Made by a program: the position numbers and the translations under genes. This document shows positions 1-59,200 of a stretch of 64,000 nt of DNA, in pieces (the stretch's first letter is position 1; every line of letters starts with the position of its first letter). The DNA lies in the NCBI GenBank assembly GCA_963706575.1, contig CAVPNL010000008.1, positions 1 through 64,000 on the forward strand, in the 5' to 3' direction. The notes under the pieces were generated by a model. It made no database searches. It saw only the letters and a list, made by a program, of their open reading frames with translations, and was not told where the DNA came from. Source of the stretch: an uncultured delta proteobacterium (GTDB lineage Bacteria > Desulfobacterota > Desulfobacteria > Desulfobacterales > JAHEIW01).

Positions 1-112
1 CTCCTTCCCCTGATATACAATTTCCATTTCGCGTTGCATATTATTTTCTCGAAAAATTTTACTGCAATTAATATATAATTAATCTGTTAATAGCTGTGTG
101 TTTGTATCTTAA

Positions 113-2476: not shown

Positions 2477-2539
2477 AAAAAACATTTAAGTTTTCGGAAA
2501 AAATAAGAGCGGAATTTTTGAAATACTTCATATTTTACA

Positions 2540-2693
2540 AAATTAATTAAAAAAAATACATAACTGCCTCTGAGTTCCAATGACTGCGTTGCAGATCTCC
2601 GCGAAGTAGTCACATACTGGCGAATGTCGCGCTTTTTTTATCAATCTGCACCATGCCCTTTGACCTGATTTAATATTTTGAAATTACTTCTAT
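2540..2693 (+). mobile_element. Degenerate copy of the ~150-bp MITE-like element at 11990-12138 (left boundary approximate)
   Basis: Shares caatgRctgcgttg, taStcacRtac, tgccctt..acctgat and ttttgaaa..actt with the intact copy. Confidence 0.55.
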
Positions 2694-2772
2694 GTAAATT
2701 ATAATTTTTATTATAAAAAAAATAACGAGTATAAAATACGCTGAATTTAGATAAATATCTATTGTATAAATT

Positions 2773-3898: not shown

Positions 3899-3901
3899 AT
3901 A

Positions 3902-4926: not shown

Positions 4927-4942
4927 AATACCTTTTAGTATT

Positions 4943-6147
4943 ATGAATCTTTTATTCATCGCTCGATGTTTCTGAATCTTATTAAGTGGATCCGAACAGG
5001 TTTTATACCAACAAGCGCTGGGATTATTAGAAAAAAAAAATAAACAACAACAATCAATGTAATAACACGCGAAAATAGCAAGTCCTTTAACTCAGGAGTA
5101 AAATACATTGAGGGCATTTTAGATGCTTATTACTCAATTAACTTAAATCAGAAGTTTCTTCTTTCCTTTTCAATTTTAACACAACCCTCCAAACTTTTCG
5201 AAAAATTTGTTGTTGGAAATAAACTGTCGGCTGCTATTAGCCACCAACCTTTTAATCTATTTTCCTTATTAATTTCGCGCAAATTAAAAAATTTACCTTA
5301 CATTTATAACTTTCACTCACCTAGTCACGAGGAGTATTTATTATCAGGGGATCAAAAAAAATATTTTTTAAAAAAAAATAAATGTAATTCTGCGCAAATT
5401 CATCGAGGGAATATGTGTTAAAAAAGCAACTAAAGTGGTGGTTTTAAGCAAATTTATGAAAAAAGGTGATAAGGCTGTACGGAATTTCACCTATGCAAAT
5501 TATAGTAAATCCAGGTGGAGTAGATCTGGAGAAGTTTTTTCCACCAAATAATCGAAAAATGACACAAAAAAAAGTAGGCTTTTTTAAAGAAAAAATAAAT
5601 TTACTCACTGTTCGAAATTTAGAACCCCGAATGGGAATAGACAACCTGATAATAGCGATTAAGCGATTAAAAAAAGTGCCAATAAATGTGCATTTAACTA
5701 TAGTGGGTGATGGGCCTGAAAGAAAAAGGATAGAACATTTAATAAAAAAATTGGATTTAACTGTAGATGTTACTTTAGGAGGTTCAATCCCGACAAACAG
5801 ATCGTCGTTTTATTATGGAGCAGCTGATTTTTTTATATTACCAACACGCGAGCTAATAAGGTTTTGGTTTGGTGACACCTGAATCCATGGCGTGTGGTAC
5901 CCCAGTTTTAGGTACGCCTGTCGGGGTGGTATAAAGAAATACTTGAAAATTTCGATCCTCAGTTTTTTTTAAGGACTCATACCCCGAATCTATTGCACAA
6001 GGGATTCAGAAAGCTATTGATGAGTATTTACAGGAAAAAGAAAAGTACAATAGACTAAGAGTCCGATGCCGACGGTATTGTAATCAAGAATTAGTCGTGG
6101 CAGCGGCATATGGATATTTTGGAATCTCATCATTTATCGAATGGTAG
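4943..6147 (+). CDS. Glycosyltransferase family 4 (heavily frameshifted; end approximate)
   Basis: ATG at 4943; fragments NPGGVDLEKF, TVRNLEPRMG, ADFFILPT and ESMACGTPVL. Confidence 0.72.
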
Positions 6148-27600: not shown

Positions 27601-30600
27601 GAATTGCCAATAATTTGGTTCAGGACTCGTCTGGATACAACTATTATTTTGCCGGAGGTGCCGGCAGTATAGACTATTCCGCAACGAATCTATCCCAGGA
27701 TGATACGTCTCCTGACGGAGCATCATTTCAGAATAAGACAGTCACCTTCGCGGGGGCAGCGGATTTTCATCTTGATTCCAGCGACACCAACGCCAAGGAT
27801 CAAGGGACCGATTTGTCCTCTGATCCCAATCTTTCTTTTTCCGATGACATCGATGGTGACGACCGGGAGGCGGCCGACTGGGACATCGGGGCTGATGAGT
27901 ATGTAGCTGCCTCGAACTCAGCGCCTACGGCTCCGACCACACCTTACAGTAACGACACGACCGCTCAGAGTGGTCAAACCAACCCGACCGGTATCACCGA
28001 TACCACACCGGCGTTTAGCGCGATTTACAATGATCCGGATAGCGGAGATGTCGCCAACAAGTACCGCGTGGAAGTCAACACCGCCAGTGATTTTGGCGGT
28101 ACGGTCATGTGGGATTCAGGCGCCGGCGGCACAAGCATGACTGACACCACCGCGGGCAACCGCTGCCCGGACATTATCTATGCAGGCTCGGCTCTATCGA
28201 ATAGCACCACCTACTACTGGCGCATTACCTTCTGGGACGATGACGACACCGAAGGGACGGTGAGCGCCACCCAGAATTTTACCACCGGCACAATCACTTC
28301 CTGTTCCAGTGTTGTGTTAAATGCCTTATATGAAGGTACAACCCAGATTGCAGCGAGCGATTATATCGCAACGGTTGATATCACCGATGTGGATATGTCC
28401 AAATCCTTTCTGGTGTTCAGCGCCGCTGTCGATGACAATAGACCCCAGTGCACTCAGATTCGGGGTAATCTATACGACGCCGGTTCCGGTGACATCAAAA
28501 TGGATTTCGAACGCTATGAATCTACCTGCCCGGTAGCCGATATCCGCTATTACGTGGCGGAATTTTCCAGCGGGGTCAGCGTGCAGCGCGGCACCAAGAC
28601 CACGTTGAGTGCAGACACCATAAATGTCCCCCTGAGCCCCACGGTGGATACCGGCAAAAGCTTTCCGTTGATCAGCGGCTTTGTGAGCAGCACCATACAC
28701 AACGGCAATGACTTTATCGAAGCGGAAATTACCGCCAACAATAATCTACAGTTGAGGAAAAATACCGGTGACGGAACAGCTAAGGTGGATTGGCAGGTCA
28801 TCGAGTATGGGTGCAGTGCGGTTCAAAAAAATACCATCTCAGGCTGGACAACCGGTTCGAAAACTGACGTCCTCAGCCCCACGGTGGACCTGTCCAAATC
28901 ATGGCTGATTTACAGCTATAAGACCGATAGTGGCGGTGATGCCACCATGGCGGAAAACATGGTACGCGGGCGCATCACCGCCGTCAACGAGCTAACCTTT
29001 GACCGAGATGATACCGGTTCTACCATCGATCTGACCTGGTATCTGGTTGAGTTTACCGATGACACCACGATTAAATACGGCACAGAAGATTTTGCAGCCG
29101 GTGACAGTCAGGAAAATGTCACCCTGTCACCATCGGTTAGCCTGGCGAGCACCCTGGCGCTTGGCGGTATGTATATGCGGGGCGGAAAGAGCGCTCATGA
29201 CAGCGATGACAACCCCGGCTACGGTTGGTTTACCTTTGATTTGACGGCCGACGACAATCTGCAGATTACCCGTAACGCAAGCGCCGGTGCGGCGGCTGAT
29301 GTGGGCTGGTTTGTAATCGATTTTAATCCCCCCACAACCCTCTACCGCTCGGTGGGCACCGCAGCTGCCGACCTTAATACCGGCTCGCGGACGGTTGAGA
29401 TCTCCGGTTCCACAGCGACTTTTTCCGGTTCCATGCCGGACAATATAGGAGTGGGTGATGTGCTGGTGTACGACAATGGCAGTGCCCAGCTGGCATTTAT
29501 CCACGGCCGCAGTTCAGCCACTGTTTTTACCGTAAAAGACAAAGACGGCGGCGCCCCGGCGGCAGCGCCAGCGGGAACAGCGGTCGGTGTTTATCGCGCC
29601 TACACCTCGTTGAGCAACTGGCAATCGCAGACCGAAAATACAAATATTACCGAACCCGCCGAAGATGATGTCAACCCTTCAACGGATCTGGTTACGGCAA
29701 ATACCATAATGATGGTGGCCTGTTATACCGGCGCATCCATCGATAATGATTATGTTATTATAGACAATTGGACGACGGGTCCCGCAAACTACATTAAAAT
29801 CTTTACCCCGGTTTCTTCATCCGAGGTCGGCACCAGCCAGCGGCACGATGGAACCGCGGGAACTGGATACAGTCTGATTACCTCGGGGTTAGAGGTCGGT
29901 ATCTCTATTCGAGTAGAATATGTAAGAGTCGAAGGATTGGAAATCTCATCCTATTACCCTCCAATTGACTTACGAGAGATGTCCGGCCCCAGCGAAATCA
30001 GAGCTTCCCATTGTTTGCTCCATGGGCTTGATAGCGGTTACGACGAATGGGCCAATGCGATCTACGTGAATGACACTGATGTAGTTCTCTATGCATGGAA
30101 TAACATAGGTTATAATCTTGGATATGGTATTTCCACAGATGCGTCCAATGAAATCTATGCCTACAACAACACGTTCATAGACCTCTTGCATTATGCAGTC
30201 GCCATAGGCAGTGGCACCTGCTATGCAAAAAACAACATTGCTGCCAATAGCGTCGAAGGGAATTATTTTGCTTGGAACAGCGGCTCATTTCATAGCAGCT
30301 CTGACTACAACTGGTCTGATGACACAACCGATACCGGCGGCACCAACGACATCAACTCGAGCGATCCGGGTTGGAATGATGTGACGTTTGCCAACGAATC
30401 CACCGATAATTTCCATCTTGCTTCCACTGATAGCGGCGCCAAAAACCTCGGCACCGACCTTTCCGGTGATGCCAGTCTGGCTTTTGCAGACGATATCGAC
30501 GGCGGCACCCGCTCAGGTATCTGGGACATCGGGGCCGATGAGTATGGTGCCAGTCCAGTAACCACACTTTATCGTTCGGTGGGCATCACTGCCACTAATC

Positions 30601-38222: not shown

Positions 38223-41200
38223 TTGATTTTAAACAATAAAATATGTCGGAGAGGGAATACGCGCCATTGTACCACCAGCGTGGGGTGGATCACCGCATCA
38301 CTGATTGCGGTGATGGTCGTTTTCGCCTCGAGCCCTGCTAACGCCGCGATCGGAGCTTCACTCGTAACCTCTATCGCTGACGGTACAGATACTTCCTCCT
38401 ATGACTTTCCTTCGGCCACTTACTCCAACAACGTTCTTTACATCGCCTTTACTTCCACTGCCTGCGGCAGCGGACAGAATTGCGGTCTTGGTGTAGACAT
38501 CGTCGCTGCAGTAGAGAGTGTCAGCGGGGCGGGATTGAATTTCACTGAGATCGGGACACCTGGCGGGGAGGTTTTCAGCACAAACGGTCGGCGCATCCAG
38601 GCCTGGCGGGCATTGGTCGCCAGCGGGGCCGGCACAGGGGCTGTCACGGTTACCATGCAAACCGGAACTATCTCTGCTTCAATGGGTGCGGCGATGATTG
38701 AGTTCACGGGCACTAAGACCAGCGGCACGAACGGCGCTGACGCTGTTGTGCAATGGCCCACGAACAGCGCCAGTGGAGTTAGCTCGCTTACCGTCAATAT
38801 GGCGGCTTTCGCCGATTCTAACAACAGGCCGGTCGCCTTCTTTTCGCACAGAGCCCAATCAGGCAGCGAGGCAACGACCCACGACACTGCGGAAGGATAC
38901 ACGGAACTGTATGACGGGCCTCATGACAGTGTTATGATGGCTGACATGGCCGAGTGGCATGCCACAGCGGCAAACACCACTCCCTCAGCTTCATGGACTA
39001 GCTCGGGTTCCACTGGCGGGTTTGCCCTGGAAATAGCAGAAGCAGGCGCTCCGGCGGCTGCCACCCTCACCCAGGCCCATGTTCGCTGGCGCAATGACGA
39101 TGGCGGGGAGTCGGGTGGTGGCTCGTGCGTTGCCGGGCCGACGGAGTATTCAACAGCTCAAGATTCAACGACGTACGTCGTTCCTACAGGGTGTGATGTG
39201 ATTACGGTAAAAGCCTGGGGTGCCGGCGGTGGCGGCGGAGAGTCGACCGGCAGCAATACCGGCGGATCCGGCGGTGGCAGCGGGTTTGCACAGACTGACC
39301 TATCGGTGACCCCCGGTGAAAATCTCACGGTCATTGTCGGCGGCGGCGGGCCCGGTGGAAGCAATGCCGGTGGTGACGGCGGTGGCGGCAACGGTGTTAC
39401 TGCTGCCGGTGGCGGTACCGGTGGCGATGCGGGAGATCCCGGTAGCGGCGATTCCGGCGGTGGTGGTGGCGGCGGAGGTTATGCAGCGGTCCTGCGCAGC
39501 GGCACCTATCTCGTGCAAGCCGGCGGCGGCGGCGGCGGCGGCGGCACCGGAAATAGCGCTGGGGATGGCGGCGCCGGGGGCGCTGGTGGTGGATCAAGCG
39601 GTCTTTCTGGCAGCACTGGTGGGGGCTCAGGTGGAGTCGGGGGTGGCGCGGGAACGGCCTCGGCCGGTGGCGCTGGCGGTGCCTTAAGCGGCTCCGCCGG
39701 CTCGGCAAACACCGGAGGCACAGGCGGCACCAATTCGGGTGACGATCCCGGCGGCGGCGGCGGTGGCGGCGCTGGACGTTACGGCGGCGGCGGCGGTGGC
39801 GCGGCTTCCCCTGAAACCGCCGGCGGCGGTGGCGGCGGTGGATCAGGTCTTGTCACCGGAACTAATACGTCACTGCAGCAAGGATCGGGTTCGACCGCGG
39901 CCAATACCGGCGATACAGACTACGCGGGCAATGCCGGGCAGGGGGGGGCTGCCGGAACAGATGGCAATCCCGGTCGAATTGTTATCATACCCAGCAGTTC
40001 CGGTGGTGGTGGCAGTATCAGTGAAACAGGAAGTGCAACAAATATAGGATCTAGTAGCGCTGCTTCAATTACACACGGCCTGACCATAAATGCCGATGAT
40101 GTGATCGTTGCCATGATTCATGTAAATACAGATAGCACTGATGTTTCTGACAACAATGGTGCTTACGCGTTTACAGAGCAAATCGACGAACCAAATGGAG
40201 GGACTTCAAGTCATTATGCAATTTATTCCAGGGTAGCCGGCGCTTCAGAACCCGCCAGCTATTCATGGAACCTTGGTGGTTCTTGGGCTTGGTCTATACA
40301 AATCCGTGTATTCTCCGGGGTAGATACTGCTACTGTCTGGGACGTAGCACCTTCCACGTCTACCAGATCTTTTGCAGGTTCAGGCACCACTGCAACCGCC
40401 CCAACCATGACCACGTCAACTGACGGTGCAATGGGAATCATTGCCTTCTTCTCCGATAGTTTGGAAACTTTTAGCAATCCCACCAATGGCTATGCAACGG
40501 AGGTTGAACCTGCCAGCAGCAGGGCTCAGGCGAGTTATATTCGCACATGGGCATCTGCGGGGGTAACAGGAACATCGAGTGCCACCCTCTCTGCTTCAAA
40601 TGACTGGCTGGCACATCAATTTGCATTAAAACCCGCGTCGGGCAGTGGTGCCACCTGGGCAGCCGACGAAGACACCAAGCTGACGGGCCTGGCTAAAAGC
40701 ACCACCAGGCGGCTGCGCTTCCTGGTGGACAATTCCGGCACCGCAAGCTCCGGGGCCGTTTCTTATGAATTGCAGGTACAGGAGACAGACACCTGTGGCT
40801 CGGGATCCTATACGGCGGTGGACTCCTCGACTCACTGGAACATCGTGGATTCCACCTACGTGACCGACGGCGCTGCTTCGGAAAATGTCAGCGGCGGTCT
40901 GACGGATCCGGGCGGCTCGTCCTGGGTAGCCGGTGAACTGGAAGACAGCGCAGATTCTCCCGACCCGATCACTCTAGCTGCCAGCGAATTCACTGAAATC
41001 GAGTTTGCCGTGCAGGCAACTGCCAGCGCCACAGACGGCGGGGACTATTGCTTTAAGCTGACCGACAGCGGGACCGATCTGGACAGTTATTCAAATTATG
41101 CCGAGGTTGCCCTTTCAGGGGGCAGCGGAGCAACGCTCAACCAGGCCCACGTCCGTTGGCGCAACGACGATGGTGCGGAGAGCGGTGGTTCGACCACTGC

Positions 41201-44200
41201 CGTTTCGGATTCGTTTACCGAGTCAGCCAACACGGTTCTTACATCCCATTCCCCGGATACAGGAACCGGCTGGACGGAGGTTTATGACAGTTCCCCGAGT
41301 GGTGATGATGCCACAGTAGTGGCCACGGAAGACATCGTAAGAGCAGGTTCGAGTGTAAACGACGTTGGGCAGGCTTATACGGCCCAACCTGCGCCGGCGG
41401 GTGTCGATCAGGATATCAGCATTGCTATAGATACTTTAATATCCGATACCGGAACCAAGCCTTTTGGACTCTTTGGAAGGCGCACGGATAACAGCAATTT
41501 CTACCACGTTCAGATTCTTCCAAATGAGCACAGTGAAGCCAGCGTTAAGCTCTGGAAGTTTGTAAGCAGCGTGGATACCGAACTGGGGTCCTATGATGCT
41601 ACGCTGGCAGTTGGTGATATCATTAAGCTCGAAATCAGGGACGCCACCAAAAAAGTTTATATTAATGGTGTCGAGCGAATTAGTTCCTCGGACAATTCCC
41701 TTACCAATGCGGGCACCTGGGGTCTCTATTTTGGAAATTATAATGGTGCCGGAGCAGGAGGCCACCTGCGGGTTGACTGGCGACTGGATAACTTTCTGGC
41801 CGAAGACCCTGGAGGAGGCTCAGGCGCTACCTTTAGCATAGACGAAGATACGGCGCTGACGGGTCTGGATAAAAACACCAACACCCGGGTCCGTTTCCTG
41901 GTGTCGAATAGCGGCGGTACGACCGCCAGCAACACCAGCTACCAGCTCGAGTTTGCCGAAGCAGCCACCTGCAGCTCCGGCTCCTACAGCGCGGTGCCTG
42001 CCACCGCCGGCGCAGGTGATAAATGGCAGATTGTGGATTCAACTCATTATACCGACCCAACGGCCACGGCAGATATTACCGACGGGGTCGACGACGCGCT
42101 GCCCAACCCGGGCGGTATGAGCTTTGTGGCCGGTGAGCTGAGGGATGACAACAGCAACAGCACCGGGGGAATTACCCTGGATCCGAACGAGTTTAGCGAA
42201 ATCGAGTTTACCATTCAGGCGACCAATGACGCCCTGGACGGCACCCATTATTGCTTTAAACTGACCGAAAGCGGAACGGATCTGGATAGTTATTCATATT
42301 ATGCAGAGGTTACCCTTTCAGGGACTCCTCCCAATTCAGCTCCAACCTTAACCGTCGATGAACCCGACGGGGCTGGCGATACGGTAACCGTCGGTGACAA
42401 CTACAACATCCAGTATGACCTGGCCGATACCGATGATGTTGTCACCGTTGCATTTTTACTATGATACCGACAACAGCGGACTCGACGGCACCGCCATAAC
42501 CGGCGCCTGTGCAGGCTGCAGCCGAAGGCACCGATGTCACCTGCAGCTGGGATACCACCGGCGTGACGCCCGGCAACTATTACGTTTACGGCATCACCGA
42601 TGACGGAACCAATCCCGCAGGTGAGTGCTTACTCGTCGGGACAAATTACCATTAATGCTGCTTCGGCCGCCACCCTCGATCAGCTCCACTACCGCTGGCG
42701 CAATGATGATGCGGGGGAGTCTGTTATCCCCCTGGATACGGGATCCGGAGCCGATGGCTCTGTGACGATTTCAGCATCTGAAAATATCAATACGGCTGTC
42801 CTGGGTTCCAGTCGTTCGACTTATGCGGACGGAATCCTAACCACGGTTACGGCAAATCCGACCGCAACCTCCATTAGCGTTACCGATACGACCGGTTTTG
42901 CGGCCGGCGATGAGATTTTATTGATCAACCTCCAGGGTGCCTCGGGCGATGTGGCAGATGTCGGTAACTATGAATTCCTTACCGTCGATACCGTCCCCAA
43001 CGGCACGACGATCAATGTAACATCGACGATTACCAAATCATACGACGGAACGACTTTTGCCAACCAAAGCATTATTGTCCAAAGGGTACCTCAATGGACG
43101 TCGGTGACCATCAATTCCGGCGGGACATTAACAGCCAATGCCTGGGATGGGACCAGCGGCGGGGTCATTGTCTTCAGGGCCACGGGGTCCGTTACTGTCA
43201 ACACGGGCGGGAAGATTGACGCCACCGGCATAGGCTACAGGGGTGGTGCCGGCGGTACGAGTGACGGCGGAAACAACGGCGAGTCTTACGACGGTCAGAA
43301 TGGGAAAGGCGGTGCCGATGACTCACGGGGCACGCTGGGCGGAGGCTCAGGTGAGAACTACCCAACCCAAGATAACACTACCGGCACCCGCGGCGGTGGT
43401 GGCGGTGGTGGTGAAACCGGTAGTATAGGCCAGGGTGGCGCAGGCGGAGGTGGTGGCGGCTACGGCGGCGGCGGCGGCGGTGGCGGCGGAGGTACAGATA
43501 CAGACAACTATATTTCAGGCGGCGGTGGAGCCGGCGGAACCACCGGCGATAGCGCAGGCGGCGGCGGCCACGGTGAAAACAGTGGCACCTCCGGCGATGG
43601 AGGATCTGCCGGTAACCCGGGCAACGATGGAGGCGTAAGCGTGGCCGTGGGCGGCGGTTTGGCCGGTAGCGGTACAACCACCGGCCAGGGCGGTCATTCT
43701 GAGGACGCCTCAGATTCCCCGGGCGGTGGCGGCGGTGGCGGTGGGAGCTACGGTATTGCGAACCTAACTCAGATTTTTTGTGGCTCAGGCGGTGGCGGTG
43801 GCGGCGATTCCGGTGCGGTTACGGGAGACGGGGAAACCGGAGGCGCCGGCGGGGGCATCATTTTCATCATTGCCGACACGGTTGATAATAACGCGACTAT
43901 CCAATTGCAGGGCGCGGACGGGGTAGACGCTACGGACGGGGACGGCGCGAGCGGTGGCGGTGCCGGCGGCAGTCTCTTGATCCAGGCGAACACGGTTGAC
44001 AATACTGGCGGCACGATTACCGCTGCCGGAGGCACTGGTGGAGCTGTGGATACGAATGATGACGCCGGCGGTGGCGGCGGCGGCGGCGTCGGTCGCATCC
44101 GTATCGAAGCCGATACGATCATTGGCACCAGCACCCCGGCTGCATCAACGAGCGGCACTCCTACTTCGGGAAGTAGCGCAAGCTGGGCAGCCGACGAAGA

Positions 44201-47200
44201 CACCAAACTGAACGGCCTGGCCAAAAGCGCCAACAAGCGGTTGCGTTTTCTGGTTGATAATACCGGTACCGGGAGTTCCGATGCGGTATCCTATGAGCTT
44301 CAGGTAGCCGAAAGTGCAACATGTGGCTCAGGATCTTATTCAGCGGTGGATTCTTCCACTCACTGGAACATTGTGGACTCCACTTATGTTACCGACGGTA
44401 GTGCCTCTGAAAATGTCAGTGGCGGACTGACGGATCCAGGAGGGTCCTCCTGGATGGACGGTGAGTTAGAGGACAGCGCTGATTCTACCGATGCGATCAC
44501 TCTCGGTGCTAGCGAATTCACCGAAATAGAGTTTGCCGTGCAAGCCACGGCCAGCGCGACCGATGGCGGGGATTATTGTTTTAAATTGGTTAATGCTGCC
44601 GGCGGTGCCCTGGACTCTTATACGGCGTATGCTCAGGTACGCATCGCGGGCGCGCATCTTACCCAGGACCATTACCGCTGGAGAAATGACAATGGTGGAG
44701 AGACCGCATCATCAACCGTGACCTACCAGAAAGGCGACGGTAAAGGCAGTGTTTCTGAGACGGATGATGCGACGTTGCATTCGACTAATTCTACTACAAA
44801 TTATGGCTCTGACGCTGCCCTCCTGATAGATGACACTCCTGATTTACACGCAGTTATCAAATTTCCCAATATTTTTGGTGGGGGCGCGAACCAGATTCCC
44901 CTGGGTTCAACGATCACCAGTGCCACATTGACCGTTGAAGTATTTGACCCGGGTACAGAAATAGCCGTTTACCAGGTTACTGAGAGTTGGATTGAAGATC
45001 AGGTGAGTTGGACCAACCGAGTTACCGGTACCCCCTGGTCCAATGCAGGTGCTGATGGAACCCTCTCCCATAAAGCAACAGCGGACGACACTTTTACAAA
45101 CGGCAGTAATGGTTCCAGGGATATCGATGTCATCACCAGTGTTCAGAACTGGTCCGCCGGAGAAGCGAATGAAGGATGGGTTTTTATCAACACGACTACC
45201 GGTGGTGTGGATGTAAGATCCAGCGAATATGGGACATTAGCCCAGCGTCCAAAGCTCTCAGTAACCTATGGTAGTGGTTCCGGTGCCACCTTTGCCGCCG
45301 ATGAAGACACCGCAATTACCGGTCTTGCTAAAAACACCAATAAACGGGTTCGCTTTCTGGTGTCCAATAGCGGCGATACGACCGCCAGCAACACCAGCTA
45401 CCAGCTCGAGTTTGCCGAAACCGACACTTGCAGCTCCGGCTCTTACAGCGCGGTGCCTGCCTCCGCCGGCGCCGGCGATAAATGGGAGATCGTGGATTCA
45501 ACTTATATCAGCGACGGAGAAACGACTTCAGATATCGATGACGGAGTCGACGATGCGCTGCCCAATCCGGGCGGCATGAGCTTTGTGGCCGGCGAGCTGC
45601 GCGATGACAACAGCAACAGCACCGGCGGAATTACCCTGGATCAGGATGAGTTTAGCGAAATCGAGTTTACCATCCAGGCGACCGATGACGCCCTTGACGG
45701 CACCCATTATTGCTTCAGGCTGACCGACAGCGGAACCGATCTGAACAGTTATTCATATTATGCCGAGGTTACCCTTGCGGGGGCTTCCAATTCAGCTCCG
45801 ACTGCCCCGACAACCCCTTACAGCAACGACACCAGCGCCCAGAGCGGACAGACCAATCCCAGCGGCATCACCGATCCCACCCCGGCCTTCAGCGCGATTT
45901 ACAATGACCCCGATTCAGCGGGGATATCGCCAACAAATACCGGGTGGAGGTCAACACCGCCAGCGATTTTAACGGCACGGTGATGTGGGATTCCGGCGCC
46001 TCGGGTACGAGCATGCCAGACACCACCGCAGGCAACCGCTGCCCGGACATCATCTATGCGGGCTCGGCGCTGGCCGACAGCACCACCTATTACTGGCGCA
46101 TTACCTTCTGGGACGATGGCGGCAGCCGAAGGCACGGTAAGCGCCACCCAGAATTTTACCACCGGGACGATCGCCACCACGACCCTGAGCTGGGGGGAAA
46201 ACAGCAGCCGGGACGACTTTAACGCTGTAACCGAGGATACGTATTTAGATCAGGATCAGCCCAGTTACGACATGGGCACCAACCCGCTTATTCGTGTTGG
46301 AGACGACGGCAGTCGCATCAACAGAACCCTGATAAAATATGATCTTACTGCCCTTGACGGCCTCGTCACAAGCTCCAGTCAAATCGTTTCCGCCACCCTC
46401 AAGATGAAAACCTATAATGACGACGCTGACCCTGGAAACATCGATGTTGATGCATTCAGAGTTAAAAAAGATTGGTTTGAAGGAACCAAAAGTTATGATC
46501 CGGCAGATGATGTGGATGATGCTGCCACCTGGCAATATCAGGTTTTTAACGAGACCTCGTGGACCGGCGCCGGCTGTGATGATTCAGCCGATAGAGAAAC
46601 GACTTCAGACGATGTTGAAACATTTGCTGCAGATTATACGTGGTACTCCTGGGATGTAACCGATTCGGTCAAATATTTCTTCGATACCCCATCCAGTAAT
46701 TTTGGATGGCTTTTAAAAGCGCAGAGTGAGGGGATAACCAAATATTGGCGAATATACAGCAGTGAAGCGGCTGAGGCAAACCGGCCCTATCTGGAAATCA
46801 CGATTAACGATGATCCGGCTTGCGGCTATGCTTACAAGCGGGCCATTACCATCGATCACAACGATGTCATCGGCGACAGCGGAGATACCGTGGATCTGGT
46901 TGATTTTCCGGTTGTGATAAAAGAATCCGGCACCTGGCTCAGAAACAGCGGCTACACCGACGGGCGCATCGAAAATGTTAACGGCTATGACATCATCTTC
47001 AAAGATTCCACCGAAACGCTGACCCTGGCGCACGAAATCGAGTATTATAACGAAGGTTCCGAGGCCGCCAACGGGGAAGCTGATGGCCTGGGTAAAAATT
47101 CCCACCCTCGATGCGGATGCCAATACCGTCATTTACATGTATTACGGCAACAGCTGTATTACGGCTGAGACTCAAAATAAAAACGCGGTTTGGAACGCCA

Positions 47201-50200
47201 ACTACAAGGGTGTCTGGCACATGTCTGAAGAGGTTGCCGGCACCGGGACCGCGGATCTGTACCAGGATTCCACCTCGAATGCACAGCCACGGAGATGACA
47301 ATGTGGACGCAACGGATCAGACAGGCCAGATCGATGGTGGACAGCAATTTGATGGCGTCGATGATCACGCCCTTGTTTCGGATCCAGGCGGGAGCTGGGA
47401 ATTTAGTGAAGGTGGTCTGGATGGCGGTACGAGCGATTTCAGCATTTCAGCCTGGGTGAGGCTGGATGCTTCGGGAACTGAGATTTTTCCAACCATCGTT
47501 AAGAAAGGTGGCGGTTCGGATACCGCCGGGGGGTACTGGTTCAACTATTATCTGACTGACGACACTCTGGATCTCAGGGTGTCGGATGGTACCAATCGGT
47601 TCATTGCAAATTCAAACACGGGCCTTGGCCTGGAAGGTGCCGGCTGGCACCACGTCTACTGCCGTTTTCGACCGTGAGGCCGGTACGGATACCGCCTACT
47701 TCTATCTGGATGGAAGCCCGGTGGGATCGGAGGGCTCCAGCCTGATTGCCGACAATTCAATCAATGAAGATAACGATCTTAGTATCGGTGCAAATAGAGC
47801 AAGCACCTGGAGGCCCTGGAAAGGGGAGATTGACGAAGTCCGCATAACCAACGTCGCGCGCACCGCCGGCTGGATTAGAGACTTCATTCAACAACCAGGA
47901 CGATCCTTCTATTTTTTACGGGCTGGGCGGTGAACAGTCCAGCGGCAATCAAACCCCCGCCGATCCGACGATCAACGACCACAATGACGGCAGCACGACC
48001 TCGGACAACACCCCCACGCTAGGCTTTACCCAGTCGGACCCGGATGCCTCCGAGCAGGTCAAATATCGCATCCAGATCGATGACGACGGACAACACCTTC
48101 AGTAATCTGGTGGTGGATTACACATCGGCTCTGATGGCCGAAGGGGCCGCCAGCTTCACCGTGGGTCAGGCGGCAGGATCAGGCACTTACACTGTCGGCA
48201 GCGAAAGCCAGACGCTGACAGACGGTGACTATTTTTGGCGGGTGATGACCACCGATGATGAAGCGGCTGCCAGCGGCTGGACCCAGGCGACTGCGGGCAG
48301 CAATGTCGCTTTTACGGTGGATACTAGCAGCGGGGGCGGGGCAGATGATGACTACACTCAGGACGCCGACATTGTCTCCTGGTGGTATCTGGATGAATCC
48401 TCCGGCACCCGCTATGACGGTTCGGCAGCAGCAACAATGATCTGAGCTGATACCAATTCCAACGTCAGCGCTCTACAGCACCACCGGCGCCGTCCGTCAA
48501 AGAAGGCGCTGCCGCCGCCAGATTTTGAAAACTCAGCCAGCGAAGATGCCCATCTGTAGGATTGCGACGACTCCCAGACCGGTCTTGAGCATCACCGGCA
48601 AGTCTCACCCTTGTGGCCTGGTTAGACTGGAGTCAACCGGGGATACCAGGACATTGTCGCCAAAGACGATGCTACCGGTAACAGAGGGCTATCACCTTCG
48701 TTATCAATGGGACCGGCGGGCTGAGATTTTATTCTTTCCAGACGATGGCACCAACATTACCGCTCGAGTGCATGGATCGACCACAGTGTCTGCCGGAACG
48801 TGGTATCATGCGGCCTGGCGTATAACGGCACCGATGTTCGGCTGTATCTCAATGACAGCTTTACATCAACGGGATCCGACGCAACCCCTGTATCTTACAG
48901 CGGCGGAATATATCAGCAACACGCACCGTTTACCATCGGATGCCGCAAGGGCAATGTTCAGATTTTTCGACGGGCAGATCGACGAAGTGGCGGTCTTTAG
49001 CCGGGCGCTTAACGCTGATGAGGTCAAATCCATTTACGAAAAAGGTCTTAACGGCGTCACCCGCATGCGGCCGGATGCCGCCCAGCCGCCGGTTCCCTAC
49101 TTTGGCCGCTCCATCGGCGAAAATACCGGAACGGTTTACGGCACCGGTACGGTGACGCTCAATCAGGGATCTCGGCGGGCCAGCTTCTCGGGGGCGACAC
49201 TGCCGACAAACATCGGCGAAGGTGATGTGCTCACCATTGGCGGCTCCACCTATTATATTGCCAGCCGGGAGTCGGCCACGGAAGTCATCGTCCAGGAAGC
49301 CAACATCAGCGGGGGTGATCATTCCGGTGCCGGCTATACGATTACCCGTGCTTACAGCGGCTCCAACCATACGCCTTTCACGAGCTGGGAGGATGCTCGG
49401 GATGGAGATCTGGTGACCGATGATTCCATTCAAAGGGGAATTTGCTACAAAGATAGCGATGGCGTCTTTGATTTTAGCAATGGGATAATCTTCGACGATT
49501 CTACGACCGACAGCAGCCATTTCATGTGGCTTACCGCCCATTCCAGCGCCCGCCACAGCGGGACGGCAGGGACCGGGGTTATCGTCGATGGCAGTGGTAT
49601 TGCAGCCGGCCACGGATTCAAAGTGATGAATCCCTATATGAGAATGGAGTGGCTGGAGATCAGAAACTATCCCGGTGACACATCTTCCGCCCAGCCAATC
49701 AACATGGGGTACCTTGGGGACGCCTCGAACAGCCTCCTCTCACATCTGATCATTCATGACTTTACATCGGATGATCAGAATAGGGGTGGAATCAATATCT
49801 ACAGCAGCGTCACCATTCGCAATAGCATCCTTTACAACGGGGACAGGGGAATTCGTGTTTACGAAGATGGTATTACCGTCACTTTGGATAACAACACCAT
49901 TTATAATATGACCGATGACGGAATTTACTTTACACAGCTGAGTACCGCCATTCTGAGAAACAATATTTCAGTGGGTAACGGAACGACGAGTGGCCAGGAT
50001 TTTGACATCGATGACTGCGGATGTGACGATTCATGCGAGTTCCGGAAACAATCTCTATTCCACTGTTGACGGTGGTGTCCATCCGGGCAGCAACAACCAG
50101 TCCCCGCCGGCCAGCCTTGATGATCTTTTTGTTACCATTACCGGCGGATCGGAAAACCTGCACCTGGAAGCCAGCGGCCACAATGCCCTGAATAACGGTG

Positions 50201-53200
50201 CAGGATTTATCGTCTTCATTTACCGATGACATCGATGCCGAGACCCGTCCCACCGGTGTCGGCACCTGGGACATCGGGGCTGATGAAAATTTAGGTGCCG
50301 GTAATTCAGCACCCACAGCACCAACCACACCCTATGCTAATGACGATTCGGCGCAGAGCGGACAGACCAATCCGAGCGGGATCATTGATGCCACCCCGGC
50401 CTTTAGCGCAATATACAACGACCCTGATTCAGGGGATATCGCCAACAAATACCGCGTGGAAGTGAACACCCAGAGCGATTTTGGCGGAACAGTAATGTGG
50501 AATTCCGGCTCTTCGGGTACGAGTATGTCTGACATCACAGAAGGAAACCGCTGCCCGGATATCACCTATGCTGGCACAGTCTTGGCCAACAGCACCACCT
50601 ACTACTGGCGCATTACATTCTGGGACGACGGCGGCACCGAAGGAACGGCAAGCGCCACACAGAATTTTACGACGGGCACCCTTACCTTGCCTTTTGCAGA
50701 TGGTTTCGAAAGTGGTGATCTGAGTGCATGGAGTGGCAATAACACCGAGCCGGGCGATACGATCGCAGCATCTACCGAACAGGTCAATTCAGGAACCTAC
50801 TCTGCCAAGTCTGTTGTTGATAACGATGGGGCTGCCAATCAGGCAATGGTTTGGAGAAATTTTGCCGGTGAAACTGTGGTTTATGCCAGAATACACATCT
50901 ACGTGCCTTCCAGTTTCTCGACCACCGACAATGTCACTGTAATGCAATTCCTCAATAACTGGTCCAATATCATCGCAACGACCATTGATGATGACATGAC
51001 CCTTTATATGTGGAATGCTGTGGCAGGCGAAGCTTACGGATTTGGCATCGGTTCAACCCTGTCAAAAGATGAGTGGCATTGCCTGGAGATGATGGCGATT
51101 ATTTCTCCGACGATCGGTGAGGCGCGGCTCTGGCTGGATGGTAGCTTAGAAATTGAGGCCACCGGTAAAAATCTGGGATCAAACGATATTGATAAATTTG
51201 CGGCGGGCTATTACTGGGCCATTCCGTATGATGAGAGTAACACTTTATACATCGATGATGCTGTTGTTGATACCTCAGCAAACGGTTGTGTAGTCGATGA
51301 ACTCTATCGCTCGGTGGGCACCACTGCTACCGATCTAAATACCGGCTCACATACGGTCGAGATCTCGGGCTCCACAGCGACTTTTTCCGGTTCCATGCCG
51401 GACAATATCGGGGTGGGTGATGTGTTGGCGTACAATAACGGCAGCGCCCAGCTGGCATTTATTCACGGCCGCAGTTCTGCTACGGCCTTTACGGTCAAAG
51501 ACAAAAACGGCGAAACCCCGGCGGCAGCGTCAGCGGGAACATCGGTCGGAGTTTATCGCGCCTATACCTCGTTGAGCAATTGGGAATCGCAGACTGAAAA
51601 TGCCAACATCACCGAGCCCGCCGAAGACGATGTCAACCCTTCAACGGATCTGGTTACGGCCAATACCATAATGATGGTGGCCTGCTATGGCGATGGCGAA
51701 GACGCGGCTTCAGTTTACATTGATAGCTGGACCACGGATCCGGACAACTATATCAAGATCTACACCCCCACTTCATTGAGCGAGGTTGGCACCAGCCAGC
51801 GGCACAATGGGGCCTGGGATACCTCGGCCTATCGCATATCAATGGACGGGACTTATTTCGCTCCGATAGGAATACGAGAGCGCTACGTCCGTATCGATGG
51901 GCTGCAAATAGATAGTAATCTTGAGTATAATAATGAGTCGAACGGGATTCATGTCAGTGATGATAATGCTGATGCCGCAGTAGAGATTCATATTTCCAAT
52001 TCAATTTTTCGGATGACGAGCGCCCCTCCAACTACCGCGGCATTTGGTATTGGCGCTTTGAATCAGTTTGGTGGAGCTAACAGCCTTTACGTTGCCAAAG
52101 TATGGAATAACATCATCTATGGCTATGCGGTTAGCGGCGGTGGCGGTAACTGTATATACGCTCAAAATAATGGCACCGTTTATGCCTACAACAACACCTG
52201 TGTCGGCGGCAGTGGGGCTGGAAACGGAATAGCGGCATGGGATAATATAGATTTCTATGCCAAGAATAACATCTCTATCGATTTTACGGATCCATACAAA
52301 AATACGTTTCACGCGGACAGTACCAATAACGTCTCCGATACCGGAGATGCACCGGGGAGCAACCCGATCAATGGAGAGCCCACTTTTGCGAATAAAGCCG
52401 GCAATGATTACCACCTGGCCGTCAGTGATACCGTGGCCCGGGGGGCGGGCGCGGACCTCGATGGGGATGCCATTCTTCCCGTCACCGACGACATCGACGG
52501 CAACGGCAGGGATGCCTCTGCCCCTGACATCGGTGCCGATGAGTACCTTGCGGCTTCCACATCCACGCTTTATCGCTCGGTGGGCATCACGGCCACCGAC
52601 CTTAATACCGGATCGCGTACGGTAGAGATCTCCGGTTCCACAGCAACTTTTTCCGGTGACATGCCGACCCATGTCGGGGTGGGTGATGTGCTGGCTTACA
52701 ACAATGGCAGCAGCCGGATCGCTTTTATCCATGGTCGCAGTTCAGCCACTGTTTTTACCGTAAAAGATAAAGACGGCGAAACCCCGGCGGCAGCATCAGC
52801 GGGGACATCGGTGGGTGTCTATCGCGCTTACACCTCATTGAGCAACTGGGAATCGCAGACTGAAAATGCGAACATCACCGAACCCGCCGAAGATGATGTC
52901 AACCCCTCAATTAATCTGGTTGCTGCGAATACCATTATAATGGTGGCCTGCTATAACGACGGGGTGATGGACGACGGCAGCATCAGCATCGATGGGTACA
53001 CCACCGGAGCCGGTAATTACATCCGGATCTTTACCCCGACTGACACCAGTGAGGTGGGCACGAGCCAGCGGAACGACGGCACGGCCGGAACAGGATTCGT
53101 CCTGAAGCCACAGACCTCGTCTCCGGGTCAATATTACTCTGTTATTCGAATCGAGGAAGATTATGTCCGGATCGAGGGGGTCGAGATCGACGGCCTCCTT

Positions 53201-56200
53201 GTGACCAACGCAGAGTATAACAGGGGCATTCTCACCACGAATACCGCAGCGGCCAGCGACATCCGGATTGACAGGTGTCTCATTCACGATCTTACGAGTT
53301 CGAAGGTGGCGGCCACTACGCATGCTGCCATGGGAATAGCGCTCACCAGCGGGTCGGCCCGAATAACCAATACGATTATCTACAATATCCACAATACCAG
53401 CACCGACCCAAATTCTTTCGCGAGGGGAATACGAATCGAAACCGGCAGCACCACAAATTATCTTTACAACAACACCATCTATAATGTCACGAACACGGGA
53501 AGTTCATACAACCAGTATGGTATTTTGGTTGATACCGGCACGGTGATAGCAACGAACAACTACGTGGGCGGCACAAGCGGTTTGGGTACGGTGGCTGATT
53601 TTAATGGCACGATGACGCAGAGCTACAACATCTCCTCTGACGGCACGGCCAGCGGCAGCGGCTCGCTGACAAACCGCACGGCCACCGAAAATTCCGATCC
53701 GGGCGCCGGTGACTGGGTGGTATTTTCGGATCTGAGCACCGGCGGTGAAGATTTTCACCTGCAGTATGTGGCTGAAAACGATGCGCTCAATGCCGGGGCA
53801 GATCTATCCGGTACTTTCAGCGATGACATCGACGGGGAAACGCGCCCGACCGGTGCCAATACCTGGGACATCGGGGCCGATGAAATCAACGAGTCCTGCA
53901 ACGATAAATTTGCCTACCGACGTCTGATTACCATCGATCATAACCAGGTGGGCCTGGATAATAATCCGGGCACCCTTCCAAATTTCCCGGCCCTTGTAAG
54001 TTTATCTGGCAAATGGCTTAACACCACCAGCGCAGATCCTACTAATGGACGAATTGAGCATTACAAAGGCTGGGACGTTGTTTTCAGGGCCTCCGACGAA
54101 GTCACCCATTTGGACCATGAGATCGAATACTATGACGGTTCGGCATCCGGTGGTGATGTTACCAAAAGCGACGGCTGGTACACAGGATTAGGAGCCTATA
54201 CGGTGCCGGCCGGCAGCGATCGGCTGCTGATTTTTGTGACTGGTTTAGAAGATGCCTCTGACAACCAGACCACCATCACCAGTGTGACCTATGGCGGCGT
54301 GAGTATGACCCCGGCTGTTGAGCACTTTTCATACAGCAGCCCGCTGACCGTGCGAACCGGAATCTGGTATTTGAGGGATGCCGACATCCCGGCCGGCAGC
54401 AACAGCTTTGTGGTTACCTACAGTCCTTCTGACCCGGGCCGCAACCGTCACGCTTACGCTCTTTTTACCAACGTCAGTCAAATAAATCCCATTGTTGATT
54501 CGGATTCGGGTGCAGTAACGAGCTCAACAACCATCACGACGGACAATCCCATTGATGTGGTTGCAGGCGGAATGTCGGTTTCGGCTGTAGTCTCCAATAA
54601 CGTTGGAAACTATGACGACAATTCATGGGGAACCGGCTGGACGGAGGGCACCGATCAAGCCTCGGGCTGGCATACGGTGGGTTCGGCCAACAGCGGCGCA
54701 TATGGATCAGACACAACAGACAGCGGCTCTGCCACGTTTAATATAGCCGCCAGACAGGTTATCGTTGCTGCCTGTCTGCGGCCCTCGTCGGATGGGGATT
54801 TGGTGGCCTGGGTGCGCATCCCCAGTCTTGCCAAGGATACCGATAGCCAGATTTACATGTACTACGGCAACAGCTGTGTCGCTAATAACCCGGAAAATTC
54901 GGCAGGTGTCTGGGTTGACTACGCCGGTGTCTGGCACTTAACAGAAGACGGCAATGGAACTGCCGATGAATTCAAAGACAGCGCCCAATACGGCAATCAC
55001 GGGCAAGGCGGTGAGGGTACCGTTGAGTTTGTGCCCAGCCAGGTGACCGGTCAGATTGCCAACGGGCAGGATTTTGATAATTCAGATGGCAAATGGGAGC
55101 TGATTGATTGCGGCAATGATTCGAGCCTGGACATCACCGGAAATCAAATAACGCTGCAGGCCTGGGTGAAGTACGATAGTGCTACTCACAGCCACATGGG
55201 TCCGTTAAACCACAAAGGCTGGAACAATGGCTACCGTCTGCTCATGGGGGAAAATGCCACCACAGTCAATTTCCAGATAACGGGGTCAAGCTATGACCTG
55301 GAGTCCAGCGGAACCCTTTCCACCGGTGCCTGGCATCATCTTGTGGCAACCTATGACGGTTCCAAAATGAAGATTTATATCGATGGTGCCAAGGATGCCA
55401 ATGAGCTCGATAAAACCGACAACATCCTTTCCGTGCCACCGACCGAAAATGAAGTCTGGATCGGGCACGCTGATCAGCCAAAGGACGTGGCGTGGAGTTA
55501 TCCATGGGACGGCCAGATTGACGAAGTCCGTATTTCTGCGACCGCCCAATCTGCGGACTGGATCGCCACCGAATACAACAACCAGAGCTCACCGGTCACG
55601 TTTTTAAGTGCAGGTGCCGAGGGAGCCGGCGGGCCCACCGCCATCAGCCTGGTCGAATTTACGGCCACCGGCGCAGGCAACGCGGTGCAGGTCAACTGGC
55701 AAACCGCCCAGGAGGTGTCCAACGTGGGCTTTAACCTGTACCGGGCAGACAGCCGCACAGGGCAGCTTTGAAAAAATCAACAACAGCCCTGATCCCGGCA
55801 CTGAGCTTTTCAGTCACCGGCAGAAGCTACGGTTTTATCGACACCGACGTGGTGTTGGGCCAGCTTGTACTATTACAAGCTTGAAGACATCGATGTCTAC
55901 GGCAAGCGCACCATGCACGGGCCCATCTGCGTGGACTGGGACGGCGACGGGCTGCCCGATGACTGGGAGATCAGATACGGGCTTAACCCGTGGTTAAATG
56001 ATGCCAATCTCGATTCTGACGGTGACGGGCTGACCAACCTGCAGGAATATGAGCTGGGCACCGACCCGTTTAACCCCGATACCGACGGAGATGGGATTCC
56101 AGATGGCCAGGAAGCCAGGAAGCGAGAAAGCCAGGAAGCTGAAGGCACGCATCAGCTTAGCCGCGGGGTGGAGGTTGTCGCTGAAGATGAAAATGGCATT

Positions 56201-59200
56201 ACCTTAGCGCTTTACACCGACACATTTTTTACCGAGAGCGTTTATGCCGACGGTATGGAATACGAACGGCTAAAGATCGATGATTACGTGCACGGTTTTA
56301 GCAGCGAGGTGGGCAAACCAGAGCTTCCGCTAAAAGGCATCCTGGTTAATATCCCCGAAGGGCAGATAGGCGAGCTGTCCATTTTACAAACCGTTGTTGA
56401 GACCCATAGCGGTTATCAGATCTTTCCGGTACCGGCAAACAGCGTTGATGATCAGGGTGTGGCAGCGGCTGTGGCAGAGAGCTTTGTAAAAGACGAAGCC
56501 GCCTATCAACAAGATGCCTTTTACCCGCAAGCAGTCGCGCAGTTAGGTGATCTGTTTGTCTTCCGTGATCAAAACAAACAGCAGCTGCTGTTTTACCCGT
56601 TTGCCTTTAACGCGGTAACCGGCGAACTTAACCATTACAAACGCATTCAGGTGCGTATTGACTATGTCAATGATCTGTATGCCAAAGTTGAAGATCACAG
56701 CGTTAGCCCCTGGTCGGTACCGCTGCCCGCACCATCTTCAGGCGATCTGTCAGAGACACTGGCCTCGATGGGCTCTTATGCCATGGCCTTTGGGGCATCG
56801 CCTTTGATCGTAAACCCGCTCTCCCCGGCGCTTACCTCTGTGGGTGTGATCATGGGCGCGGTGTGGTCACCGCCAGCTGATGGGGCTGCCGGCGCCTATA
56901 AGATCATGGTCTCAGAAGATGGCCTCTACCGGCTTGACAGCGCCTTTTTTAGCCAACAACGGCATTAATCCCGCCGACATCGATTTAGATACCGTGCGCC
57001 TCTATCATATGGGTGAAGAAGTCGCTGTTTTGGTCAACGATGCCGACACCCCCGGTGCCTTTGACGCCAACGATTATATCGAGTTTTACGGCCAGCCGGT
57101 AGCGGATCAATATGCCAAATACGCGGCCCAAAACATCTACTGGCTGGTGACCGCTGGCGGCATCGGAACCCCCAAACGCATGGTGGCAGTCGATGGCACC
57201 CCGGCGGCCGGGCCTTTGGCCACCGAGCACAGCGCTTCTGGTGCGCTTAGAAGACGATGAATACTATGTGGGGCTGGCCCCGGGGGCAAACGAACGCGAC
57301 CGCTGGTTTTTTGATGACTTTGTGCTGGGCACTGACTTTACCGGCGGAGCCGGATCCGGTTGAGGTGCCCTTTGACCTCACCTTGCCGGGGGTTATCGGT
57401 CAGGGCAATCTTACCATCTCCTTGTGGGGCTATTATGACACCGGCCATGAAGTGGAGGTGTGGGTAAATGATGTGTCCCAGGGCACTTTTAGCTGGTCCG
57501 GCATTGCCTTTTATGAGGTGAACCTGAGCGGGCTTAATTTAACCGAAAACACCACCGTAAAACTTGCCTGCCACACCGCTATGGACGGGCTCGATTGTTG
57601 ATTATATCGAGGCCACTTACCCGCAAAGCTTTGCCGCGGTCACTGACAGCCTTCACCTTTAGCCACGACAGCGGCTACCGCTATATCATCGATGATTTTA
57701 GCACCGATGCCCTGCGTGTTTTTGACATCACCGAACCAGTTGATGTGGCACAGGTCACCGACCTACAAATTAACGGCACAGGTCCGTTTAGCCTTGAGTT
57801 TGAACCGCCGCCAAGCGGGCTGACCGACACCTTTCTTATCATCGGCACCGATGATTATAAGATCCCTGATGCGATTGTTGAAGATACGCCCTCTGATCTG
57901 GCCGACACCGCCAACAGCGCCGATTATATCTTAATTACCCACCAAGACATCGGCTGGGACGGTGGCGGTGCTCCAATATGGCTGGTTAACCGATCTGGTT
58001 GCCCTGCGTGAAGATGGTGATCTTAGAAGTCAAGGTGGTTAATGTCACCGACATCTACGATGAGTTTAGTTACGGGATACCCACCCCGGTGGCGATCCGT
58101 GATTTTCTGTCCTATGCCTACAGCAACTGGCGTACGCCCGCACCGCAGTATGTGCTTTTGGTGGGCGATAGCACCTATGATTTTAAGGACAACTACAACC
58201 GGGGCACCGTAAACCATGTGCCCGCATATACGGTGTTTACCGATTATATGGGGGAGACGGTCACAGACGAATACTTTGTCACCATCAGCGGCGATGATGC
58301 GCATGGTTGACATGTACATCGGGCGGCTTCCGGCCCAAAGCGCAGCTGAAGCGCACGGCGATGGCTAAATAAGATTATCGCCTATGAGACCGGGCTTAAC
58401 ACCGGCAGCTGGGAGAAAAACGTGGTACTGGTCGCCGATGATCAAACCGAGGCCTATGAGGCGGTCTTTGAGACCATCAATGAGGATGCCGCAGCGCTTC
58501 TGCCCTCAAAGATGGTGGCGCTTAAAGGGCTATTTAAACGATTATCTGCTGTCTGGTGATTTAAGCACTGACATCACCAACTGGATCAATGACGGGGCGC
58601 TAATTGTCAATTACAGCGGTCATGCCTCACTGCAGCAGTGGGCCGCCGAGGCGGTGTTTGTAAATGCCGATGTAAACACCCTGACCAACACAGGCAAATA
58701 TCCGTTTTTTATCTCCATGAGCTGTTTGACCGGCTACTTCGGGTACCTGGATGCAGCCCTGGGCCCGCAGCCTTCATTGGCCGAAGCACTTGTTGCAGGC
58801 CGCCGACAAAGGGGCCGTAGCTGCGCTAATGCCCACGGGCATGACCACCACAGCAGGCCAGCACATATTCAACAACGCGGTCTTTGAGGCCATTTTTGTA
58901 AACGATATCAGACAATTGGGCCCTGCGATCGCCGCTGCCAAACAAACCCTTTTAGCTAACGGCGATGCCTATTTTGAACAGATATCGCAAACCTTTTTGC
59001 TCTTTGGCGACCCGGCTCAAACTTTAAAGATCCCGCTGCCCAGGATGCCCAGCGGGGTAAAGGCCTATTGGGAAAACAACTCCGTGCGCATTCACTGGAA
59101 TGCGGCCTTAGATAGCAACGGCAACGCGGTGGCGGGCTACAACATCTACCGCGCCAGTGCCCCGGCAGGCCCTTACAGCAGGGTCAACACCGAGCTTGTC

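Follow-up and report, generated by a model that had tools for sequence, protein, structure and literature searches.

The question raised by this locus is whether a short beta-strand motif and a downstream half-domain, which occur four times in one giant gene with a different insert between them each time, are the two parts of a single domain. The locus lies in a window of 64,000 nucleotides (positions 1 to 64,000 of the forward strand of contig CAVPNL010000008.1, here C8:1-64000), which belongs to a 5.67 Mb assembly of 25 contigs from an uncultured delta proteobacterium (GCA_963706575.1). The giant protein is encoded on the + strand from 38223 to at least 47168 and starts with a hydrophobic leader. 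Each repeated unit is very probably one immunoglobulin (Ig)/CARDB-like beta-sandwich carrier into which an entire foreign domain, the passenger, is inserted at the two-residue loop behind the first strand, and the passengers are predicted to be side branches of a stalk that is likely to be surface-exposed, on which they would act as binding modules.

A six-frame motif scan of the window found the strand, xLxQxH(V/Y)RWRNDxxxE, at four places only, all in one frame, with the R of RWRN at 39084, 41154, 42693 and 44676. These correspond to strand starts at 39063, 41133, 42672 and 44655, as given in an earlier reading made from the letters alone (hereafter the sequence-only reading), whose starts for the C-terminal halves (C-halves; 40647, 41823, 44178 and 45282) and insert sizes (about 510, 210, 485 and 190 residues) also agreed with those measured. 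All features are on the + strand. The first strand of carrier 1 (39063-39119) is followed by passenger 1 (39120-40646, 509 residues), made of a Gly-rich domain (39120-40004) and a beta domain of about 214 residues (40005-40646), and then by the remainder of the carrier 1 sandwich (40647-41120, about 158 residues). Carrier 2 consists of a first strand (41133-41189) and a remainder of about 167 residues (41823-42323), with passenger 2 (41190-41822, 211 residues) between them; carrier 3 of a first strand (42672-42728) and a remainder of about 158 residues (44178-44651), parted by passenger 3 (42729-44177, 483 residues); and carrier 4 of a first strand (44655-44711) and a remainder of about 167 residues (45282-45782), parted by passenger 4 (44712-45281, 190 residues). 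Units 1 and 2 are stacked back to back, as are units 3 and 4, and an in-line linker domain of about 115 residues (42324-42671) lies between the two pairs.

The carriers had been described as an A-B-A-B scaffold with halves nearly identical in DNA. For the C-halves the alternating order held, with 1 paired to 3 (80% DNA identity over 405-422 nucleotides) and 2 to 4 (86% over 478-504 nucleotides), so that 'near-identical' was an overstatement; for the N-terminal strands the order did not hold, carriers 1 and 2 being the most similar (15/17 residues) and carriers 2 and 4 the least (10/17). The last third of carrier 1 (40995-41120) was 68-72% identical in amino acids to the corresponding parts of carriers 2 and 4 (42198-42323 and 45657-45784) and that of carrier 3 only 53-55%; carrier 1 itself thus appears mosaic, hinting at gene conversion between adjacent units. 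A fifth C-half of the genome is found on the same contig at 88068-88541, 24 kb past the end of the window. Its unit (contig positions 86809-88551) is also split, has as its passenger a beta-helix like that of unit 3 and is part of a different giant protein, one of the DUF2341/LamG kind. Each of the five carriers found in the genome was thus split.

To place these units among relatives, a carrier profile was built from the five C-halves of this genome; it matched 1786 representative clusters (50% identity) at E<=1e-3, 997 of them at E<=1e-10. The hosts were metagenome-assembled genomes (MAGs) of Desulfobacterota-like bacteria, Acidobacteriota, Gammaproteobacteria, Binatia, Nitrospirae and Patescibacteria, and the family was common in the last. 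The carrier is about 175 residues long, with conserved motifs of its own. It was matched by no Pfam model (7, 17 and 6 proteins scanned) and by none in NCBIfam, and the C-half profile gave no match to any PDB chain sequence at E<=10. Pfam CARDB (PF07705) did not match the window carriers and gave one weak match (E 0.067) inside a carrier of P0024. The motif strings RWRNDD, YRWRND and HYRWRN occurred in no paper of the searchable full-text literature, and a generic search for nested domains in surface proteins yielded nothing bearing on the carrier family.

Relatives were analysed as a sample of 203 fetched proteins (65 from one search and the best 150 of the profile search, the two sets overlapping and the window's own two proteins included). 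They contained 381 carrier starts. The strand stood directly ahead of the C-half in 146 and lay 153-852 residues upstream in 110; 125 had no strict strand match. A gap of 16-152 residues between strand and C-half was seen in none of the 381. Among the 125 starts lacking a strict strand, 58 belonged to tight tandem arrays, no more than 20 residues past the carrier before them, where the first strand has diverged (for example to FRIYQDD or YRWYEN); most of the others were truncated or unresolved. In contiguous examples (P0015, P0024, P0066, L007:1303-1836, L022:2929-3468) two residues separate the strand from ATW (DDGSE-xx-ATW). Thirteen genome loci of Acidobacteriota, Gammaproteobacteria and Patescibacteria contained natural contiguous domains as well, and 13 such domains aligned on both sides of the insert in MAFFT. 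These comparisons of sequences show strand and C-half to be two parts of one domain family, which also exists uninterrupted.

The insertion site was nearly constant. On the N-terminal side the carrier ended in G-x-E in 99 of the 110 split units, and it resumed with A-T-W/F in 106, giving the pattern RWRNDDG-x-E / insert / x-x-A-T-W/F. In the DDG-x-E turn, position x was occupied by G in 66 of the 110 split units and mostly by S, N or D in contiguous ones, and this G may be a hinge adaptation to the carriage of passengers.

If the units were instead beads on a string, the RWRND segment would end the preceding domain or linker, or start the passenger, and the EDT half would be a complete smaller domain. 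The strands of units 2 and 4 do lie only 2-4 residues past the end of the previous carrier, and 44 of 107 split strands have a carrier ahead. Against this, 63 of the 107 strands of split units were not preceded by a carrier, nor were 112 of the 144 strands of contiguous units, and a strand came after the last carrier in just 5 of 149 cases; the strand is therefore not part of the preceding domain. It also accompanies about 22 unrelated passenger groups, and in 146 units, N-terminal ones included (P0066, P0134), it adjoins the C-half directly. With the models described below, which join strand and C-half, this arrangement was already largely refuted and is highly improbable.

Units 4 and 3 were folded with AlphaFold2. 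The input alignments were composed of natural domains in contiguous form and of C-halves, to which six homologous split units were added for unit 3. In the model of unit 4, the strand (residues 7-16) had a predicted local distance difference test score (pLDDT) of 84 and the C-half was mostly above 90. In the unit 3 model the strand, again a beta-strand at residues 7-16, scored 80-89, the C-half was mostly above 90 and the beta-helix parts of the passenger scored 65-96. Fold alignment, performed independently of Foldseek, was used to compare both models with known structures. Among the 50 matches listed for each model, the alignment to single-domain beta-sandwich structures began at or before model residue 10, passed over the insert and reached the C-half end in all 50 rows for unit 4 and in 47 for unit 3; the other three rows of unit 3 (EtpA twice, FHA once) covered residues 29-505, which is the passenger. 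Matches common to the two models included 3idu (Z 7.9 and 8.2, 101 of 116 residues aligned), 7wrk (Z 7.6 and 8.6) and CLIPPER 9ifr (Z 7.5 and 7.9). Foldseek with the 669-residue model gave weak matches only, to tailspike beta-helices (E 5e-4 to 1e-3) and Ig-like domains. The models thus predict docking of the distant strand onto the C-half of its own unit. The sequence-only reading had held that the RWRND strand completes the EDT half, and had proposed structure prediction of the units and a search for uninterrupted homologues as checks; the strand was modelled as a confident beta-strand that the fold alignments group with the C-half, the homologues proved abundant, and together they bore the claim out.

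A different pairing can be imagined in which the first strand completes the C-half of another unit or another molecule, in the manner of donor-strand exchange, so that units polymerise or cross-link. The distance between strand and sandwich, up to 509 residues here and 852 in relatives, would leave room for it, and pilins and donor-strand systems were among the fold matches (Z 6-7). However, contiguous forms with two linking residues can hardly swap, strands and C-halves occur one to one within proteins, and the models fold each unit locally. Exchange in trans is accordingly given very little credence.

In the preferred reading, that of a carrier interrupted after its first strand, the chain would enter the carrier, exit after strand A to form the passenger and come back to complete the sandwich. 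With the chain leaving and re-entering the carrier at one loop, the two ends of the passenger would be adjacent, and the passenger would project from an axis formed by the carriers. The N-terminal hydrophobic leader suggests export via Sec. Judging from family labels, LamG included, the passengers (DNRLRE/CBM96, beta-helix, Gly-rich and unnamed beta domains) would bind polysaccharide or other surface ligands.

This design has a described counterpart. According to two papers on repeats-in-toxin (RTX) adhesins, a single N-terminal strand is followed by a ligand-binding domain and then by the bulk of an Ig-like domain, as in V. cholerae FrhA SBD-UKD, A. hydrophila AhLap and M. primoryensis MpIBP (PMC10865825, PMC12077191). 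For AhLap, ligand-binding domains are described as 'budding' past the first strand of Ig-like split domains and as pointing off axis (PMC12077191). Split domains in RTX adhesins of Gram-negative pathogens have been described as a means of spotting ligand-binding domains. The carrier resembles the RTX split domain in having one N-terminal beta-strand of about 12 residues, a whole inserted domain and then, rejoining that strand, most of an Ig-like sandwich; in the adjacent ends of the inserted domain, the several kinds of insert and the occurrence in giant fibrillar surface proteins; and in escaping homology-based annotation, which both papers note for theirs (PMC10865825, PMC12077191). The discontinuous Ig-like sandwich by which the two papers define the split domain was found here by three routes, namely contiguous homologues, AlphaFold2 models and fold alignments.

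The host protein and the sequence are nevertheless of another kind. No sequence relation to the RTX split domain was detected, and Pfam scans of ORFs (open reading frames) 38223-42464, 42600-45983, 46056-47168, 48525-50069 and 50198-55771 found no RTX, BIg or other type I secretion system (T1SS) features, the true C-terminus of the gene being obscured by frameshifts. Unlike RTX adhesins, the carrier host protein has an N-terminal Sec-like leader and the hosts are MAGs of environmental phyla; unlike RTX split domains as described there, the carrier units stand back to back, the family is abundant in unsplit form, and a single site, two residues wide, takes about 22 passenger groups. Since T1SS-type features were lacking in these scans and the PDB gave no sequence match, the carrier is placed outside the RTX class: it works like an RTX split domain and is of a different family. 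Its best fold matches were CARDB, MG-type and fn3-like sandwiches and CLIPPER (Z 7.3-8.2, root-mean-square deviation 2.8-3.5 Å, 101-117 residues). Of the structures compared, 3idu is the PF1109 CARDB domain, which has a di-metal site, 4u48 contains alpha-2-macroglobulin MG domains and 9ifr is the CLIPPER domain of a Gram-negative fibrillar adhesin. The carrier differs from these in its larger size, its motifs and the lack of a significant sequence match, with Z scores in a range common to sandwiches.

The locus therefore represents a known split-domain design in a large unnamed family of giant proteins outside the RTX class. The split device is thereby extended to a very large unannotated family (the 1786 clusters above, matched by neither Pfam nor NCBIfam and by no PDB sequence) and to non-RTX giant proteins of environmental phyla, Patescibacteria included, in which split and unsplit members stand side by side and nearly all units share a single insertion site. 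A parsing rule for otherwise opaque giant proteins follows from it: from RWRNDDG-x-E to the next A-T-W..EDT, what lies between is a passenger and a probable binding module. A model of the joined carrier would help domain annotation pipelines, and for the display of domains the carrier is a candidate scaffold.

Passenger 4 matched NF033679 (DNRLRE) at E 8e-19 (68.3 bits, cut-off 34, profile positions 1-164 of 164) and PF24517 (CBM96) at E 1.8e-11 (44.6 bits, cut-off 26), both above the curated cut-offs and in agreement with the DNRLRE-like label proposed earlier. A search for this passenger in 150 genomes of the order gave 6 distant matches. For passenger 3, predicted as Gly-rich from the sequence alone, a Gly-rich right-handed beta-helix was indicated by a partial match to AgmC_N (NF047640; 82-84 bits, below the cut-off of 275, profile positions 239-406 only) and by fold matches to the beta-helices of EtpA (Z 7.0) and FHA (Z 6.8) spanning unit 3 model residues 29-505; the partial AgmC_N match indicates shared Gly-rich beta-helix repeats and not an equivalog. 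The Gly-rich start proposed for passenger 1 was consistent with a weak match of its first part to Gly_rich_2 (PF21722), below the cut-off (E 0.0064, 17 bits against 24.3, profile positions 3-219 of 226), and its beta domain was 56-78% identical to passengers of P0003, P0137 and P0046. The ConA-like label given to passenger 2 found no support: it is 89% identical to P0003 residues 1285-1493, but at E<=5 a fragment of DUF7374 was the sole match in Pfam and NCBIfam, the ESM Atlas returned unnamed clusters only, and local hhalign gave no named family. When passenger 2, the passenger 1 beta domain, insert group 1 and the N-terminal domain of the giant protein were compared with one another by local hhalign, they were unrelated (best probability 18%). 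An insert group that joined passengers 1 and 2 by single linkage (group 5) was rejected as an artefact, as P0003 carries both and hhalign shows no relation between them.

Exchange of passengers among carriers was assessed in the same sample of relatives. The 110 inserts fell into 22 BLAST groups, the largest of which was DUF2341+LamG (30 units). P0003 holds passenger 2 (89%) and the passenger 1 beta domain (77%) in one loop, before a carrier of type 2/4, and uses a passenger-4-like DNRLRE domain (58%) in line. In P0074 passenger 4 is found at 83% identity in a host carrier that is only 52-57% identical, and P0009 has it (81%) inside a carrier of type 4 (86%) that follows a different upstream domain. 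In-line use of passenger families was seen too, for example with CBM96 at 46056-47168 and in P0003 residues 565-749. A FastTree phylogeny was made from 242 carriers, rows of fewer than 140 residues and the 125 unassigned units being excluded. One clade (win_C1, win_C3 and P0007_626, support 96) contained three different passengers and another (win_C2, win_C4, P0003_980 and P0009_571, support 100) three passenger kinds. Passenger type changed at least 45 times on the tree among 105 split units (possible minimum 20; shuffled labels, mean 70.7 and minimum 65), and the split or contiguous state at least 21 times (shuffled mean 78.5); these counts are descriptive and not tests, as kin share labels. 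Because carriers more than 80% identical hold unrelated passengers, here and in metagenomic relatives, re-assortment of inserts among closely similar carriers is supported by the sequence comparisons. Of the proposal that the scaffold was duplicated and the inserts then exchanged, the exchange is borne out by the mosaic relatives and the A-B duplication history is plausible only, as the N-terminal strands do not pair as the C-halves do and the last third of carrier 1 is like that of carriers 2 and 4.

Such exchange would proceed by recombination between the conserved carrier flanks. It is possible, if rather doubtful, that the loop after strand A, flanked by RWRNDDGGE and GxGATW..EDT, which are the best conserved motifs of the family, is a dedicated cassette slot in which flank recombination swaps binding domains within and between giant surface-protein genes. 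If so, uncultured sediment bacteria and Patescibacteria would gain a fast modular change of what their surface fibres bind, and the carrier would be a natural general-purpose display scaffold, with at least 22 unrelated guests of 150-850 residues.

The integrity of the gene has to be considered separately. The gene starts at 38223-39062 (+) with a signal-peptide-like hydrophobic N-terminus and an N-terminal domain of about 240 residues, the translation of which is 82% identical to the P0009 N-terminus and matches neither Pfam nor NCBIfam. It is readable as ORFs 38223-42464 (1413 residues) and 42600-45983 (1127 residues) with further pieces, and so is not the single open gene that had been assumed. 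Three successive +1 shifts at about 42460-42610, the first of them at a run of five T, part the two ORFs, and another shift lies near 45900-45990, with more over about 45900-48500. The linker domain at 42324-42671 is spread by the three +1 shifts over three frames here and is in a single frame, intact, in relatives P0003, P0058 and P0101. Past the later shift, the continuation (45783-47168, +) comprises an Ig_Rha78A_N-like module, then a CBM96/DNRLRE-type domain that is in line and not nested, then a DUF2341-like start. Across the window, single-base frameshifts at 42460-42610, 45900-45990, 47000-48500 and 49900-50230 chop the giant genes into overlapping ORF pieces, a pattern that looks like long-read indel error.

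The gene could on this account be a decaying pseudogene or an assembly artefact, its architecture having no present function in this organism. Three +1 shifts within about 150 nucleotides, with those further downstream, speak for it, and when 30 related genomes were searched at the DNA level for an orthologue of the entire gene, the only match was a tail fragment in G018 (90% identical). On the other side, the position of the first shift in a T run is typical of sequencing error, the modules between the shifts are open and conserved (the 1413- and 1127-residue frames have no internal stops), and intact relatives have the same module order. Decay or artefact is considered unlikely for this copy, and the conclusion on architecture does not depend on whether this copy is expressed.

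Several points weigh against the reading of split carriers with side-branch binding modules. In the unit 4 model the passenger had a pLDDT below 50, as did 173 residues of the unit 3 passenger, where the Gly-rich core is 197-369, and the side-branch geometry is for this reason modelled only with low confidence. Docking of the strand was read from DSSP state, pLDDT and the first and last aligned residues and not from coordinates, so that the pairing register is inferred, and the alignments given to the models held contiguous homologues, which favours pairing of strand and C-half. The best fold Z scores (7.9-8.6) are in the range that the search tool calls common for beta-sandwiches. Ligand binding by the passengers is deduced from family labels. 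The sample of 203 proteins is skewed to high scorers against a split query, and 106 of the 239 inner branches of the carrier tree had support below 80. The A-B-A-B duplication history is contradicted by the N-terminal strands. Finally, the gene is frameshifted in the present assembly and may be a pseudogene here, and among the public sequencing runs searched for the frameshifted stretch none holds it (best share 0.07 of words), which also speaks for decay or artefact.

The neighbourhood of the gene fits a role at the cell surface; it contains glycosyltransferases, a PilY1-like gene, further giant LamG/DUF2341/beta-helix proteins and a piece with TSP3 and Propeptide_C25. A PilY1 beta-propeller protein (18581-20386, E 2e-47) and a separate Gly_rich_2 domain protein (21626-22621, E 2e-8) are encoded just upstream of the giant genes. 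Window positions 1-6000 have a GC content of 32-34%, against about 46-61% elsewhere in the window, and contain ORFs 113-1306 and 1303-2130 for group-1/family-4 glycosyltransferases; this segment may be a horizontally acquired polysaccharide-synthesis island. At 55865-56968, after an ORF of 1857 residues, a TSP3 repeat and Propeptide_C25 were found. Many carrier-bearing relatives (P0016, P0029, P0071) terminate in TSP3, Propeptide_C25 and Peptidase_C25, and because of this likeness a gingipain-like C-terminal module may likewise follow in the giant proteins of this locus. An Ig_Rha78A_N module of about 130 residues, its copies 81-85% identical in DNA, is present at five or more sites of the neighbouring giant genes (window positions 27909-28295, 45780-46170 and 50303-50679; contig C8 positions 84698-85131 and 89652-90027), which suggests recent copying of modules within the genome.

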